A stretch of 48,278 nt of DNA from contig JACPMF010000007.1 in assembly GCA_016186145.1 (NCBI GenBank), positions 85,302-133,579 of the forward strand, given 5' to 3'. Positions 9,824 through 48,278 of this stretch are shown here, in pieces; the stretch's first letter is position 1; each line of letters starts with the position of its first letter. Source of the stretch: Candidatus Sungiibacteriota bacterium (GTDB taxonomy: Bacteria > Patescibacteriota > Minisyncoccia > Sungbacterales > SURF-37). The notes beneath the pieces were generated by a model. It searched no databases, was not told the DNA's origin, and was given only the letters and a program-made list of their open reading frames with translations. Made by a program: the position numbers and the translations under genes.

Positions 9824-10861
9824 ATGGCCATAAACAACTCAAGCAGCAACATAACCGAGGAAACAATCCTTACACGCTACGAGTCCCTGCCCGAAGACTT
9901 AAAGCAAGCTCTCATGGGTGTTGAGACCGCCGGAGAGCTCTATAAAATAGGTAAAAATGCAAACTTAAGCGTTGAAAAGATTGGCCGCCTCGCTGAAGAA
10001 GTCGGATTAATAATTTTAGGACTCACCCCTTCCCAAAACTTCATCTCGGACTTAAAACAAATGCTCGAGGTGCCCCAGGAAAAAGCCGAAGAGGTCGCAT
10101 CAGAGGTCAACACACGCATCTTTCTTCCGATACGCGAATCACTCAAGCGCCTGCATGGCGCTTCATGGAGCGAGGGCATCACAAAGCTCCCAGTCACAGC
10201 CGAAAGACCAAGAAGCGCTTTTGATGAAGGAAAAAAGGCGCCCGCTTTCTCATTGCCTCCCGCCTTTCAAAAAGAACCGGCGTCTCCGTCACAAGCAAAA
10301 CCGGAAATCAAAAAACCTGTGATGCCGCCGCCACTGGCAGCGCCAATTGAAAAGATTTCTTTACAACCGACAACCCCCTCAACCCCAAAAGAGCCCCTCA
10401 TTATTCAGCCAATGGGTGGCGCATCGGCAATAACAAGACCCGCTCCTGATCGCGGAGTATTTAAAAACGAAATAAGGCCGCCTTCTCTAATACCTGCGGA
10501 AAGAAAGCCGGTCCCCCCGCCCCCGCCAATAATCCAGCCACCCCAAGTTCGAGTCGCGGCCCCTGATACAAAATCTGAAATAAAAAAAATACAGACCCCA
10601 ACACCCCCACCACCGCCCCCGGTGCCGCCGAAAATTCCGATATTTGAAAAACCGGCATTACTAACTCCTCCGGAACCGTTAGGCCAACCCTCTTCCTTAA
10701 AAAGCATTGAACCTCGCGCGAAGGACCTGAAACCATCCCCTGTCCCTGCGGAAAGACCCTGGGGTGTTAGGGAAGACAAAGAAGTTAAACCGTCCGTTCA
10801 AATCCCCCCATCGACGCCTTCACAACCCGGGTTTGACCCATATAGAGAACCACTTGAATAG
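9824..10861 (+). CDS. Pro-rich protein of unknown function
   Basis: 345-aa ORF with a structured ~110-aa N-terminal domain followed by PPPPP-rich low complexity. TATAAT at 9772-9777 lies upstream. Confidence 0.55.
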   Translation: MAINNSSSNITEETILTRYESLPEDLKQALMGVETAGELYKIGKNANLSVEKIGRLAEEVGLIILGLTPSQNFISDLKQMLEVPQEKAEEVASEVNTRIFLPIRESLKRLHGASWSEGITKLPVTAERPRSAFDEGKKAPAFSLPPAFQKEPASPSQAKPEIKKPVMPPPLAAPIEKISLQPTTPSTPKEPLIIQPMGGASAITRPAPDRGVFKNEIRPPSLIPAERKPVPPPPPIIQPPQVRVAAPDTKSEIKKIQTPTPPPPPPVPPKIPIFEKPALLTPPEPLGQPSSLKSIEPRAKDLKPSPVPAERPWGVREDKEVKPSVQIPPSTPSQPGFDPYREPLE

Positions 10862-10943
10862 AAGCAGATTTACGCGGATGACAACGCGGAAAAAACGCGG
10901 ATCCGCATGAATCCGCGTAGCTATCCGTATTTATCCGCTTCTA
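10861..10943 (+). repeat. 83-nt intergenic repeat, copy 1 (4 GCGGAT-like + 4 ATCCGC-like units)
   Basis: Differs at only 3 of 83 positions from 11367-11449 by my alignment. Starts in the upstream stop codon and ends 4 nt before the next ATG. Confidence 0.9.
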
Positions 10944-10947
10944 AGGC

Positions 10948-11364
10948 ATGCGTCAATTCCAAGTTCCCCAATTTATAAACATCGAAGACAAAATTATCGG
11001 GCCGCTCACGCTAAAACAATTTCTCTATCTTGTCGGCGGAGGGGCTGCCGTCCTCCTCGCGTGGTTTGGTCTCAACACATTCTTTTTTGTTCTCGTTTCG
11101 GCGCCGACAACAGCCCTTTCTCTTGCGCTTGCTTTCTTAAAAATTAACGACCAAACATTTCCAACGGTCTTTATGAATAGTTTAAACTTCTACCTAAAAC
11201 CCCGGCTCTACTTGTGGAAACGGGCCGCCCCAGCAAGGACGGCCGGCATGCTTCCAAAAGAAGACGCGGAAAAACAAACAAAAATCAAACTTCCGACACT
11301 CACCGAGTCAAGACTAAATGACCTTTCCTGGAGCTTAGACATTAAGGAGAAACTTAACCGTTGA
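10948..11364 (+). CDS. PrgI/VirB3-like small membrane protein
   Basis: MRQFQVPQFINIEDKIIGPLTLKQFLYLVGGG... followed by two TM segments is the PrgI-family N-terminal pattern. Adjacent to VirB4. Confidence 0.6.
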   Translation: MRQFQVPQFINIEDKIIGPLTLKQFLYLVGGGAAVLLAWFGLNTFFFVLVSAPTTALSLALAFLKINDQTFPTVFMNSLNFYLKPRLYLWKRAAPARTAGMLPKEDAEKQTKIKLPTLTESRLNDLSWSLDIKEKLNR

Positions 11365-11366
11365 TA

Positions 11367-11449
11367 GAAGCGGATCTATGCGGATGACAACGCGGAAAAA
11401 ACGCGGATCCGCATGAATCCGCGTAGCTATCCGTATTTATCCGCTTCTA
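11367..11449 (+). repeat. 83-nt intergenic repeat, copy 2
   Basis: See 10861-10943. Begins 2 nt after the upstream stop codon (TGA 11362-11364) and ends 2 nt before the ATG at 11452. Confidence 0.9.
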
Positions 11450-11451
11450 AT

Positions 11452-12117
11452 ATGCAGCAGACCGAATCGCAAAAGGCCGCGAAGGCAAAGGCGGCACAGG
11501 ATTTCCTCGCAGTCGACTTTATCCGAGACGGCGTTATTTCCCTTAGAGGCACCCAGGGACTACGAATGGTCCTAATGGCGTCCTCTTTCAACTTTGCCCT
11601 CAAGTCCTCTGAAGAACAAGACGCGACCATCATGCAATACGAAAACTTTTTAAATTCTTTGGACTTTCCAATCCAGTTCGTAATCCACTCCAGAAGACTC
11701 AACATAACTCCATACCTTGAAACCCTCAAAGAGCGGGAAAAAGAAGAAACGAACGAGCTGTTAAAAATCCAGGTCGGCGAATACATCGAATTTGTGCGTT
11801 CTTTCGTCGAACTGACTAACATCGTCACAAAAACTTTTTATGTAATCGTGCCGTTTACACCGACAATCGCGGAGAAGGCGGGTGTTGCCTCGTTTTTACC
11901 GGCGTTTTTCAAAAACAAGAAGGACGCCGGCGGAACCGATAACGGAAATTCTTTCACAGAGCACAAAAACCAGCTTTTACAGCGAGCAGACGCGGTATCC
12001 GCCGGATTGAGACGGTTCGGCATACGAAGCGCTGCGCTGAATACAGAAGAACTCGTCGAGCTTTTCTACGGACTCTACAACCCCGCAGAGGCAGAGAGAC
12101 AGAAGCTTAAAGAATAA
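11452..12117 (+). CDS. VirB4 N-terminal-domain-like protein without an ATPase domain
   Basis: ATG at 11452 (the track start 11413 lies inside the repeat). FIRDGVISLRGTQGLRMVLMASSFNFALKSSEEQD...FLNSLDFPIQFVI resembles the N-terminal region of Gram-positive-type VirB4 proteins. No Walker motifs. Confidence 0.45.
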   Translation: MQQTESQKAAKAKAAQDFLAVDFIRDGVISLRGTQGLRMVLMASSFNFALKSSEEQDATIMQYENFLNSLDFPIQFVIHSRRLNITPYLETLKEREKEETNELLKIQVGEYIEFVRSFVELTNIVTKTFYVIVPFTPTIAEKAGVASFLPAFFKNKKDAGGTDNGNSFTEHKNQLLQRADAVSAGLRRFGIRSAALNTEELVELFYGLYNPAEAERQKLKE

Positions 12118-12120
12118 TCA

Positions 12121-12209
12121 ACGAATTACGAATCTTTTGCGAATCTACGAATACTCGTTGCTGTCGCGTGAAATATTATTCGTATATTCGTACTGGATTC
12201 GTAATTCGC
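12121..12209. repeat. Imperfect palindrome built from 4 (A/G)CGAAT + 4 ATTCG(T/C) units
   Basis: Left-arm units at 12121, 12128, 12139, 12147. Mirror units at 12178, 12186, 12197, 12204. CGAATTACGAATC (12122-12134) pairs perfectly with 12196-12208. Confidence 0.85.
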
Positions 12210-12227
12210 TGGTGGAGCGAAGCGGAT

Positions 12228-14042
12228 ATGGCCATTCTTGGTTTCGGAAAAAAACAAAGACAAACAGAAGAAATACTCCCGGTTTTTCCGGAAGAAATTT
12301 ATCGCGCGGCGGAAATAACGCTCAAAGACGTCATCGCGCCGTCAGCCCTTGAAATCAGTCCGAATTTTCTGCGTCTTGGAGAGCGTCTCGCGCGCACTCT
12401 TTTTGTATTTTCATATCCCCGGTTTCTGCACACGAACTGGTTCTCGCCGATCATTAATCTCGATAAAATCTTTGATATTTCTATCTTTATTCACCCGGTA
12501 GACACTGCGGTAATACTTCGCGAGCTAAGAAAGCAGGTGGCGCGGGTACAGTCGCAAATTTCCCTCCGCGAAGAAAAAGGCCTCGTTCGAGACCCGATGC
12601 TTGATACGGCGTATCGAGACCTTGAGGTGCTGCGCGACCGCCTCCAGCAGGCGCAGGAACGACTTTTTAACGTCGGCCTCTACATAACGGTCTACGGATC
12701 AAACGAACAAGAACTTGATAAGGCGGAAAACGAAATTCGGTCAATGATGGAATCGAAGCTCGTCTACATAAAACCCGCGCTCTTCCAACAAGAAGAGGGA
12801 TTCAATGCAACCCTTCCGTTAAACACCGACCATTTGCTTATCCATAATTACCTGAACTCGGGCCCGGTATCCTCAACTTTTCCGTTCGTCTCTTTCGATC
12901 TTACCTCCAACAAAGGCGTGCTCTACGGCATCAACCGGCACAACAACTCCTTAATTCTCTTTGACCGCTGGTCCCTCCCAAACGCAAACTCGGTCACCTT
13001 TGCCGTCTCGGGGGCGGGGAAATCATATGCAACAAAACTCGAAATTCTCCGCTCGCTCATGTTCGGCGGAGAAGTCATTGTCATCGACCCGGAACGCGAG
13101 TACAAGTATTTAACCGAGACCGTTGGGGGTGCTTACTTCAATATCTCACTCGCCTCGCCCCATCACATAAATCCGTTCGACCTCCCGCTCCCCCGCGAGG
13201 ATGAATCGCCGGCAGATGTCCTTCGCTCAAACATCGTAAACCTCATTGGGCTTTTCCGCATCATGCTCGGCGGACTCACGCCGACCGAGGACGCCATCCT
13301 CGACCGGGCAATTACCGAAACGTACGCGGCGAGAGACATCACCCCTGAATCGGATTTCACAAAAACAAGCACCCCCACCCTCTCCGACCTTGCCCTAGTC
13401 CTTGCAAACACCGAGGGCGGAGATGAACTTGCGGTGAAACTGAAAAAGTACACCGAAGGAACATGGGCCGGGTTCATAAACCAGCCAACCAACATTAATG
13501 TGCAAAACCGCCTTGTGGCGTTTTCGGTACGGGACATGGAAGAAGAACTCCGGCCCGTCGCCATGTATATCGTTCTCCATTACATTTGGAATATCGTCCG
13601 GTCAGAACTCAAACAGCGCCTGTTGGTGGTAGACGAAGCGTGGTGGCTTATGCGCCAAGAAGACGGCGCATCGTTCCTTTTCGGCATCGCAAAGCGGGCA
13701 CGGAAATATTATCTCGGCCTTGCCACCATTACCCAGGACGTAGCCGACTTTTTGGGTTCGCCCTATGGCCGCCCTATTGTTACAAACTCTTCAATGCAAC
13801 TCCTCCTCAAACAGTCTCCGGCGACGATAAAAACCGTAGTCGAAGCATTCAATCTTACCGAGGAAGAAAAATTTCTGCTCTTGGAAACAGAAGTCGGGGA
13901 GGGCATCTTTTTTGCCGGCTTAAAGCATGTCGCCATCAAGGTTATCGCCTCCTATACCGAGGACCAAATCATCACTACCGACCCCGCGCAGCTTATGGTT
14001 ATCAGAAAAGCAAAAGAAGAGTTTCAGAAGGCGGGACAATAA
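12228..14042 (+). CDS. virB4: VirB4/TrbE-family conjugation/T4SS ATPase
   Basis: ATG at 12228. Walker A is VSGAGKSYA and Walker B is LLVVDEAW, with a VirB4-like N-terminal domain. About 600 aa. Confidence 0.85.
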   Translation: MAILGFGKKQRQTEEILPVFPEEIYRAAEITLKDVIAPSALEISPNFLRLGERLARTLFVFSYPRFLHTNWFSPIINLDKIFDISIFIHPVDTAVILRELRKQVARVQSQISLREEKGLVRDPMLDTAYRDLEVLRDRLQQAQERLFNVGLYITVYGSNEQELDKAENEIRSMMESKLVYIKPALFQQEEGFNATLPLNTDHLLIHNYLNSGPVSSTFPFVSFDLTSNKGVLYGINRHNNSLILFDRWSLPNANSVTFAVSGAGKSYATKLEILRSLMFGGEVIVIDPEREYKYLTETVGGAYFNISLASPHHINPFDLPLPREDESPADVLRSNIVNLIGLFRIMLGGLTPTEDAILDRAITETYAARDITPESDFTKTSTPTLSDLALVLANTEGGDELAVKLKKYTEGTWAGFINQPTNINVQNRLVAFSVRDMEEELRPVAMYIVLHYIWNIVRSELKQRLLVVDEAWWLMRQEDGASFLFGIAKRARKYYLGLATITQDVADFLGSPYGRPIVTNSSMQLLLKQSPATIKTVVEAFNLTEEEKFLLLETEVGEGIFFAGLKHVAIKVIASYTEDQIITTDPAQLMVIRKAKEEFQKAGQ

Positions 14043-38632: not shown

Positions 38633-38780
38633 AGCCGAAGGTGGGAATCCTCTTCCTCTGAAATTTTGCGCGCCCCTCGATATAACTCGGGACAGGCAAA
38701 ATTTCTCCCCCAGAGCCCGGGTTTCCAAAATCGTAAAGCAGTTTACGATTTTGGAATACCCTTCGATTCCCATCTTCACC
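38633..38780. ncRNA. Family-B structured element, copy 1 (three-way junction; tRNA-3'-end-like terminal inverted repeats)
   Basis: P1 is TGGGAATC (38642-38649)/GATTCCCA (38765-38772). There is a 15-bp hairpin TTCCAAAATCGTAAA/TTTACGATTTTGGAA and a 10-bp stem GAAATTTTGC/GCAAAATTTC. About 60 nt are identical to 48016-48137. Confidence 0.5.
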
Positions 38781-38788
38781 TCAACCAT

Positions 38789-38827
38789 CAAAAACAAAAC
38801 CACTTTTTATAGGTGGTTTTGTTTTTG
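38789..38827. terminator. 15-bp perfect hairpin between the tRNA locus and the family-B element
   Basis: CAAAAACAAAACCAC-(9 nt)-GTGGTTTTGTTTTTG. Confidence 0.6.
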
Positions 38828-38829
38828 AT

Positions 38830-39063
38830 AGCCGAAGATGGGAATCGAACCCACATTTCTACTTTACGAAAGTAATGTCCCGATTTTGTTCAAACTTTTG
38901 AAGCCAGGGGTGGGAGTCGAACCCACAACCTCTGCTTTACGAAAGCATTGCTCTGCCATTGAGCTACCCTGGCTGCAAAAGTTTGAACAAAATCGAGGAT
39001 CCTCGATTCGCCAACCGCGCTCCGCGCGGGCGAATCGGGACTCTACCATTGAACTACTTCGGC
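38830..39063 (-). tRNA. Interrupted tRNA-Thr(CGU)-like gene: 23-nt 5' part and 48-nt 3' part separated by a 163-nt insertion that contains another tRNA
   Basis: The 5' part 39063-39041 is GCCGAAGUAGUUCAAUGGUAGAG. The 3' part 38877-38830 is CAUUACUUUCGUAAAGUAGAAAUGUGGGUUCGAUUCCCAUCUUCGGCU. Joined, they give a 71-nt cloverleaf. Confidence 0.65.
38902..38973 (-). tRNA. tRNA-Thr (anticodon CGU), intact, no encoded CCA
   Basis: GCCAGGG UA GCUC AAUGGCA GAGC A AUGCU UUCGUAA AGCAG AGGUU GUGGG UUCGACU CCCAC CCCUGGC U. All four arms pair (one A/G mismatch at 27:43). Confidence 0.92.
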
Positions 39064-45642: not shown

Positions 45643-45828
45643 TGGGCGTAGTAGGGATCGAACCTACGACCTTTCGCATGCTTGCCCGCCCAAATTTCTG
45701 AACAATGGACGGTGCAGGATTCGAACCTGCGGCCCCTGCAATGTGAATACAGTGCTCTACCGCTGAGCTAACCGTCCAGAAATTTAGGCGGGTGAAAAGC
45801 GAACGCTCTGCCACTGAGCCATACGCCC
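45643..45828 (-). tRNA. Split tRNA with anticodon loop UUUUCAC (UUC, Glu-type): 37-nt + 35-nt halves separated by a 114-nt insertion carrying tRNA-Val
   Basis: Halves are 45828-45792 and 45677-45643. Joined they read GGGCGUA UG GCUC AGUGGCA GAGC G UUCGC UUUUCAC GCGAA AGGUC GUAGG UUCGAUC CCUAC UACGCCC A. Every stem is Watson-Crick. Confidence 0.7.
45706..45777 (-). tRNA. tRNA-Val (anticodon CAC), intact, no encoded CCA
   Basis: GGACGGU UA GCUC AGCGGUA GAGC A CUGUA UUCACAU UGCAG GGGCC GCAGG UUCGAAU CCUGC ACCGUCC A. Confidence 0.93.
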
Positions 45829-48003: not shown

Positions 48004-48146
48004 GTGAGCGGGTAAGGGGAATCCTCTTCCTCCGAAATTTTGCGCGTGCCTCCGGCACAGGCAAAGTTTCTCCTCCAGAGCCCGGGTTTCCAAAATCGTA
48101 AAGCAGTTTACGATTTTGGAATACCCTTCGATTCCCCCATTATCAC
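48004..48146. ncRNA. Family-B structured element, copy 2
   Basis: P1 is GGGGAATC (48016-48023)/GATTCCCC (48130-48137). Same 15-bp hairpin as copy 1. The P3 tip is replaced by GTGCC-TCC-GGCAC. Terminator-like hairpins flank it at 47973-47996 and 48161-48189. Confidence 0.5.
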
Positions 48147-48278
48147 AATCATCGCAAATTAAAATACCCGTCGTAAGAGGGGTATTTTAATTTCCGATAA
48201 GTATATTTACGACTGCGCTCGAACTTACTTTATCAAAAATCTCTGACCAAAGGAAGCCGCCCCGCCGCCGCTCGCTAA

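Follow-up and report, generated by a model that had tools for sequence, protein, structure and literature searches.

Elements that integrate into tRNA genes reportedly share with their targets a block of identity that begins in the T loop and extends as far as the gene's 3' end, and tmRNA genes are said to be used as well. Certain casposons have the 3' end of a tRNA gene as their specific insertion site. The insertion sequence IS608 relies on pairing between a guide sequence and the cleavage site. The element described here, Family B, occurs twice in a stretch of 48,278 nt (the window) and stands in a fixed relation to the 3' parts of tRNA genes. It is likely to be a small, non-coding, non-autonomous, structured mobile DNA element that is specific for the segment of tRNA and tmRNA genes between the T loop and the 3' end. 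Literature searches found no description of such an element, and Family B is apparently both widespread and undescribed among the ultra-small (Parcubacteria/CPR) bacteria.

Two copies in the window

ARAGORN and Rfam together call only two tRNA genes in the window, both of them on its minus strand: tRNA-Thr(CGU), at 38900-38974, and tRNA-Val, at 45705-45778. The initial annotation, made from the sequence alone, had reported two copies of a three-way-junction element at 38633-38780 and 48004-48146, and both were found at these positions (Table 1). Their cores are near-identical between GGGAATCC and CCCTTCGATTCCC, differing in a pairwise alignment by three substitutions and an exchanged P3 tip. 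Both also have the hairpin as described, 15 perfect base pairs closed by a GCAG loop, and the swap of the P3 tip in copy 2 is equally evident from the alignment.

Table 1. Coordinates of the two Family B copies and their flanks in the window
Feature	Position	Strand	Description
Copy 1, segment C	38633-38649	-	Direct repeat of the tRNA-Thr 3' part, positions 57-73; minus-strand letters GATTCCCACCTTCGGCT
Copy 1, junction J31	38650-38659	-	Purine-rich tract AGAGGAAGAG; 3' end of the donor-derived core
Copy 1, helix P3	38660-38705	-	AT-rich base of 10 bp and variable tip; covarying pairs
Copy 1, junction J23	38706-38718	-	GGGCTCTGGGGGA on the minus strand
Copy 1, helix P2	38719-38761	-	19-bp hairpin with one bulged A; minus-strand loop CTGC
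Copy 1, segment B	38762-38777	-	GGGAATCGAA; reverse complement of T-loop positions 54-60 plus 61-63
Copy 1, linker	38778-38786	-	Between the tRNA end and B
Copy 1, AT-rich hairpin	38787-38829	-	One long palindrome with linker, B and tRNA end
Outer tRNA-Thr(CGU) gene, 3' part	38830-38849	-	Positions 54-73; copy 1 follows this end in minus-strand reading
Copy 2, segment C	48006-48023	-	GATTCCCCTTACCCGCTC; direct repeat of the tRNA-Gly(UCC) 3' part
Copy 2, core	48024-48126	-	J31 48024-48033, P3 48034-48070, J23 48071-48083, P2 48084-48126
Copy 2, segment B	48127-48138	-	GGGGGAATCGAA; reverse complement of tRNA-Gly positions 54-65
Copy 2, linker and flank	48139-48278	.	12-nt linker, then 128 nt (48151-48278)

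Inspection of the sequence shows that the outer tRNA-Thr(CGU) gene next to copy 1 was later interrupted by a nested tRNA cassette reaching to about 39070. The left end of copy 1 (38633-38649) is identical to the 3' end of this split gene (38830-38846) at 16 of 17 nt, while its right end (38765-38777) is an inverted copy of the same 3' end; segment B is here lengthened, the inverted tRNA 3' sequence reaching 16 nt. Matches of Rfam hairpin models to 38754-38858 reflect nothing more than a long hairpin.

The left end of copy 2 had been thought to resemble the 3' end of a different tRNA. It is that of tRNA-Gly(UCC), located at 356-426 on contig C1, with 17 of 18 nt shared. Beyond its linker the sequence at 48151-48278, which is also the contig end, is identical in inverted sense to the DNA immediately downstream of tRNA-Gly(UCC) (contig C1, 354-226). 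This 128-nt inverted identity would mean that tRNA-Gly and copy 2 are separated either by a long palindrome or by an unresolved island, and both junctions of copy 2 are present in metagenome contigs at about the depth of the genome. Of the terminator-like hairpins said to bracket copy 2, the AT-rich hairpins themselves are real, but the prediction tool does not class them as terminators.

Family size and hosts

Relatives were collected with BLAST and a covariance model built on 25 curated copies, giving a set of about 100 non-redundant elements. The window's own genome (0.98 Mb) has just the two copies. Within the order, 35 of 62 genomes contain Family B; for the class Paceibacteria the figure is 63 of 401 sampled genomes (16%), with 1-9 copies each. 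Among named genomes, a pattern scan places it in the Moranbacteria, Azambacteria, Yanofskybacteria, Uhrbacteria, Andersenbacteria and Wolfebacteria, all of them Parcubacteria/Paceibacteria. The core spans about 115-130 nt without an open reading frame, and no ORF-bearing relative occurs in the 97 loci examined. Viral contigs gave no true match, their sole pattern match being a coding region. When all Rfam families were searched, including the Y-RNA-like, tRNA-like, 6S and CsrB-like ones to which a relationship had been suggested, only the two true tRNAs passed the gathering score; at E values up to 10 the element matches only chance hairpins (miRNA models).

In four groundwater metagenomes, coverage of the conserved P2 region of copy 1 (38714-38771) exceeds that of the remaining genome 20- to 100-fold, and many other community members therefore carry relatives of Family B. 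The DNA metagenome contigs likewise show the conserved part at high depth, derived from other community members.

Target sites and flanking segments

The search for further copies, and for their adjacency to tRNA 3' ends, bore out the association first seen in the window. For 81 of the approximately 100 elements, a tRNA or tmRNA gene of the same orientation lies within 300 nt upstream, mostly at a distance of 10-130 nt, and in most of the others the upstream repeat copy lies beside a tRNA that ARAGORN does not call. The targets comprise 24 isoacceptor types plus tmRNA. Read in tRNA sense, the unit begins with the tRNA, followed by an AT-rich hairpin and a 12-16-nt linker, segment B, the core of about 100 nt, and segment C. 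The gap between tRNA and B is 50-69 nt in 50 of the 81 elements and 10-29 nt in 13. Within the core, the order is GAA, the P2 hairpin, a purine-rich junction, the P3 hairpin and a second purine-rich junction. As a consensus this reads B (GGGAWTCGAA), GGGTATTYC-P2-GRAAACCC, GGGCTCYGRAGGAG, P3, GGKGAGGAG and C; in the family alignment the conserved block of J23 is ACCCGGGCTCYGRAGGAG and the J31 tract is conserved as GGKGAGGAG / GGAGGAAGAG.

Segment C is a direct repeat of the 3' part of the tRNA. Its left limit falls in the T loop, between positions 56 and 57, in all of about 90 cases, and it is mostly 17-21 bp long, ending around position 74; at a minority of loci the repeat continues for 13-63 nt beyond the tRNA. 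Segment B consists of about 10-12 nt complementary to tRNA positions 54-63/65. In 54 of the 81 elements its reverse complement agrees in full (10 of 10 nt) with positions 54-63 of the neighbouring tRNA, and a further 19 agree at 9 of 10. Rare T loops are tracked as well (TGCAAAT, TGCAATT, TCCGAAT, TTCGAGT, TTCAACT), and B also matches positions 54-56, including the TGC and TCC variants, which lie outside the repeat.

The tRNA 3'-end sequences seen at the ends of the element by the initial annotation are real, on both sides, but its reading of them as a mimic of an acceptor/T-stem is unsupported. The terminal segments copy whichever tRNA or tmRNA adjoins them (24 isoacceptor types), one directly and one inverted, and the acceptor part is mostly unpaired. 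The tRNA-like look of the element appears to come only from the copies of its landing site that it carries.

Other rearrangements of tRNA genes were encountered in the same genomes. Arrays of partial tRNA 3' halves together with mixed small elements are located behind tRNA-Pro (L133:1688-2200 and L135, in G002 and G008) and tRNA-Asp (L132, in G010), and suggest repeated replacement of tRNA 3' parts. At L103:1640-1945 (G125), ARAGORN misses a tRNA whose 3' end includes an encoded CCA (...CCCTGCCCACCA), since about 250 nt are inserted after its D arm; the insertion may be an intron or another element.

Movement between tRNA genes

With B and C excluded, core identity is 0.773 for elements at different tRNAs of the same genome, against 0.702 for the same tRNA in different genomes and a baseline of 0.679. 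Nearest neighbours form 15 pairs of the same genome and different tRNAs, and only six of the same tRNA in another genome. A shared genome thus goes with greater core similarity than a shared tRNA does, and hence the element moves from one tRNA gene to another. Examples of such same-genome pairs have identities of 0.97 and 0.90 (both in G032) and 0.95 (G377), and the Thr/Gly pair of the window is also among them. In such near-identical copies B and C each fit their own tRNA, which is intact; the flanks were therefore made from the target at insertion rather than carried along. Independent, diverged copies in tandem occur at L035, L112 and L021/L128.

The same layout is found around other cores, which make up at least two further families. 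At the tRNA-Gly site of one genus, three genomes have Family B and two have a different core with the B...C architecture. In this second core family (L308 and L311, the tRNA-Gly loci of G135 and G163) B is followed by GAAAGCCGG..., and the core ends with ...GTGACC, after which segment C begins. A third version, with a single hairpin, is found at L106:1868-1950 and shows the same succession of T-loop complement, core and repeat. The locus L074:1245-1440 is a further example of other cores with the Family B layout. Insertions directed to the T loop thus appear to form a superfamily.

Close relatives in two genera have only occupied or otherwise rearranged sites and no empty one, so that the boundaries of the insertion are defined by the repeats alone. 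No deletion allele occurs in the DNA metagenome contigs.

The palindrome next to segment B

Between tRNA position 57 and B the sequence is palindromic. Beside B, copy 1 repeats in inverted orientation 13 nt from the 3' part of the tRNA and 17 nt from the DNA that follows it, with ACCTCAACC standing in for the last four tRNA bases (GGCT). In copy 2 the inverted repeat comprises 11 nt (TTCGATTCCCC) and at least 127 nt of the sequence downstream of tRNA-Gly, and 13 unrelated bases take the place of the 10 acceptor bases. The inverted copy beside B is without the acceptor segment even in copy 2, which is apparently recent, and a simple duplication model leaves this acceptor-less arm unexplained. 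An arrangement of inverted copy, core and direct copy would be expected if the core had bridged both strands of a DNA end cut at the T loop, an idea that the missing acceptor segment does not fit well.

Such a bridge is central to the view that Family B is a by-product of break repair, where a nuclease cuts the T-arm (e.g. one of the tiny GIY-YIG or LAGLIDADG-like homing enzymes that are common around these sites) and snap-back synthesis primed by microhomology brings in a core copied from another locus. On the bottom strand the core would be joined to the 3' end left after the complement of T54, and on the top strand to the 5' end at R57; off-centre opening of the bridging hairpin would give the palindromic module from tRNA to B. 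The geometry of the flanks fits, as does the palindrome arm of 12 to more than 127 nt, and potential nucleases are at hand, with tiny GIY-YIG ORFs in 7 of the 97 loci (once 10 nt after segment C) and LAGLIDADG-like genes beside tRNA-Met in six. However, these genes have no fixed position, and 7% is close to chance for a common selfish gene; the inverted arm lacks the acceptor segment; and the T-arm is intact after insertion and would thus still be cleavable. An origin of this kind is considered unlikely.

Folding, covariation and strand

Single strands of both copies fold into the proposed three-way junction, with z scores of -6.6 to -8.8 relative to shuffled sequences on either strand. The compensatory changes inferred by the initial annotation from two copies are real, and the pattern persists in further ones: an alignment of 47 further elements has both-side changes in 29 of 32 pairs, and 92.5% of its pairing cells can pair compared with 74.1% in shuffles, none of 500 shuffles attaining the observed value. 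Slid controls collapse in the same test. Both P2 and P3 covary strongly, including all 10 pairs of the P2 core. Across 99 elements this core stem is 98.4% Watson-Crick with less than 1% wobble pairs, and the P2 loop is CTGC in 61 of the 99.

The long P1 helix that had been drawn into the acceptor region exists in copy 1 but is not a family trait, since relatives average only 1-5 extra pairs; pairing past 7 bp dies out within 1-5 positions and the acceptor part is mostly unpaired. P1 is nothing other than segments B and C, both matched to the target and pairing with one another, and its 'covariation' reflects this.

The sense strand gives the more stable fold in 90 of the 99 elements. Over all helices, 64 G-T pairs were counted against 28 A-C pairs on the tRNA-sense strand, which is the minus strand of the window. 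The excess favours this strand as the one that folds, but is only a hint because the alignment was fitted to a sense-strand model.

Strong covariation, the G-T excess and the greater stability of the sense strand are also what a functional small RNA of tRNA operons might show. Such a stable RNA would be transcribed together with the tRNA or by read-through from it, its 3' tail, a copy of the tRNA 3' end, would be matured by tRNA-processing enzymes, and it might act as a decoy or in the quality control of tRNAs. The copies at L036 and L116 would suit it, lying inside tRNA arrays with spacers of 12-13 nt and no hairpin. Most other copies stand behind a hairpin and T-run expected to stop transcription of the tRNA, the distribution is patchy (16% of the class genomes, 0-9 copies), there is neither a conserved promoter nor an Rfam match, and the acceptor part of the tail is usually unpaired. 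The near-absence of wobble pairs from P2 is unusual for RNA helices, and tandem copies and copies hopping within a genome are transposon behaviour. A small RNA of this type is thus judged improbable. Two suggestions of the initial annotation meet the same objections. Copy 2 had been likened to an independent gene, at odds with the lack of an Rfam match or conserved promoter, the patchy occurrence at 1-9 copies per genome and the near-identical copies at different tRNAs; and the purine-rich junctions had been offered, speculatively, as an SD/anti-SD or GGA-motif sponge, which finds no support in either Rfam or a conserved promoter.

Search for a mobilising enzyme

The unit itself includes no ORF, and no enzyme gene recurs at a fixed position among the proteins encoded next to the element at the 97 loci. 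A large-serine-recombinase island as parent was suggested by two orphan copies, 10 and 17 kb past their own tRNA (L139 and L141). In both, the tRNA whose 3' part recurs in the orphan has a large serine recombinase gene immediately next to it, and L120 is similar. The right end of the island is located 57 nt (L139) and 56 nt (L141) upstream of B, equal to the usual gap of the mini-element, and repeats merely the final 4-7 nt of the tRNA; the islands therefore entered between the tRNA and a pre-existing element. This parent was rejected, given that no copy of Family B lies within 20 kb of 14 other recombinase islands next to tRNA genes and that the recombinase is not enriched (32 of 63 Family B genomes, 205 of 401 overall).

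The same findings largely refute the reading of Family B as an attachment-site relic, or a cis-mobilisable mini-island, of a tRNA-integrating island or phage that carries an attP-like tRNA 3' end: the identity block from T loop to 3' end and the use of tmRNA form the classic pattern of tRNA integration, and three orphan copies lie 4-17 kb from a tRNA with a large serine recombinase gene beside it, but a 3' end borne by the element cannot give matching ends at different tRNAs with near-identical cores, the genome has a lone Xer-like tyrosine recombinase, and viral contigs hold no true match, making this very improbable.

Large serine recombinase genes (450-550 aa) convergent to tRNA genes are found in about half of the sampled Paceibacteria genomes. 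The window's own genome has about five, among them those at 10657-12245 and 17383-18857 on contig C1. The islands are 4-17 kb in size and lie at the very 3' end of the tRNA, flanked by a repeat of no more than 4-7 nt (L139:9483-19945, L141:2813-19850).

Other candidates were also rejected. The single Xer-like gene of the genome represents the tyrosine integrases, and none occurs near any copy. The Y1 transposase (PF01797) is absent from the genome and is not enriched among Family B genomes (37 of 63, against 243 of 401). Neither Cas1 (PF01867) nor the IS110 transposase (PF01548) has a match in the genome. A phage-borne attP would have the coding-region match mentioned above as its only counterpart in viral contigs. 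Segment C does not derive from reverse-transcribed mature tRNA: of 67 C copies, 14 have CCA after the discriminator, compared with 19 of the 67 corresponding genes, and the pairs disagree in both directions.

Small nuclease genes occur in the neighbourhood of some loci. ORFs of 81-88 aa encoding GIY-YIG nucleases were observed, without fixed position, beside tRNA genes or Family B in the 7 loci noted above (e.g. L106:2142-2403, L070:1119-1371, L124:1641-1902). Proteins of 220-257 aa with an N-terminal HTH and an LYWAEGSK motif are encoded beside the tRNA-Met genes of six loci (L100:1108-1798, L071:357-1131, L109, L111, L016 and L095); judged by their sequence, they look like homing nucleases of the LAGLIDADG type.

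Proposed mode of insertion

For Family B as a mobile element of the T-loop-to-3'-end segment, the following course of events may be envisaged. Insertion with a target duplication of about 18 bp would keep the tRNA gene functional, and the element's own hairpin would end transcription of the tRNA. By pairing with the T-loop strand, segment B would serve to match the target, much as a guide does, and it probably takes part in target choice. P1, formed by B with C, would be the automatic outcome of a guide together with a duplicated target. The folded form would be a single strand of tRNA-sense polarity, and the enzyme would be supplied in trans. The G-T excess, and the position of the L036 copy inside a tRNA operon without a hairpin, would fit a transcribed RNA too.

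A bolder version, put forward here only tentatively and on balance doubtful, is that of a protein-less programmable transposon. In it, the B guide of about 10 nt, paired with the T-loop strand, would direct a host or trans-acting enzyme, of a type that has so far had no connection with transposition, to insert the folded single-stranded core with an 18-bp staggered duplication. Changes of single bases in B would retarget it to tRNAs with other T loops, and several unrelated cores (Family B, the GAAAGCCGG family, the single-hairpin minis) would share this logic. Should B indeed function as a guide, Family B would constitute an insertion system of very small size that can be programmed by sequence, of interest for mobile-DNA biology and for tool building.

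More generally, the tRNA genes of minimal genomes (about 1 Mb, with mostly single-copy tRNAs) appear as busy landing sites of tiny selfish elements, which have evolved ways of sparing the tRNA gene. Family B offers an exact solution: always the same T-loop nucleotide, the 3' end rebuilt, a hairpin added, and a segment that mirrors the target. It accounts for many contig breaks and 'tRNA-like' fragments in Parcubacteria assemblies, and should be masked in the prediction of small RNAs or tRNA pseudogenes in these organisms.

Comparison with known elements

With the islands of tRNA and tmRNA genes and their CIMEs, Family B has in common the targets, the repeat from T loop to 3' end, the restored gene and the accretion in tandem. 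Unlike them it has no cis integrase or cargo; it carries no attP copy of its own, no cognate integrase was found, and its 3' end is re-made for each target. The inverted target copy (B) also sets it apart, as does its absence from viral contigs.

The likeness to MITEs and palindromic repeats (Rickettsia palindromic elements, Correia, RUP) is considerable. Family B is non-coding, strongly structured, multi-copy and non-autonomous, measures only about 170-200 bp when its hairpin and repeat are included, is flanked by a target duplication and is patchy in relatives; it has also moved, with same-genome copies up to 0.97 identical. The duplication is made anew for each target and, at mostly 17-21 bp, is unusually long. 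Unlike MITEs, Family B is strictly site-specific for one tRNA/tmRNA position and has a very low copy number, and no transposase-bearing parent was found. Its terminal inverted segments are derived from the target instead of being encoded by the element: B and C match the local tRNA rather than a family consensus.

Casposons and CRISPR spacer integration likewise produce long target duplications (14-37 bp), but Family B is 100 times smaller than a casposon, has no polymerase or cargo, and resides in a genome without a Cas1 (PF01867) match. The bridge RNAs of IS110 resemble it in having a structured non-coding part of about 150 nt with short target-complementary segments. The long duplication of Family B differs from the 2-nt core of IS110, whose transposase (PF01548) has no match in the genome.

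IS200/IS605 elements and the PATEs derived from them leave no target duplication, unlike Family B, and their Y1 gene (PF01797) is absent from the genome and not enriched among hosts. They share with Family B a function that apparently resides in folded single-strand hairpins and, as in the guide-cleavage-site pairing of IS608, a segment 5' of the hairpin foot that is complementary to the insertion point.
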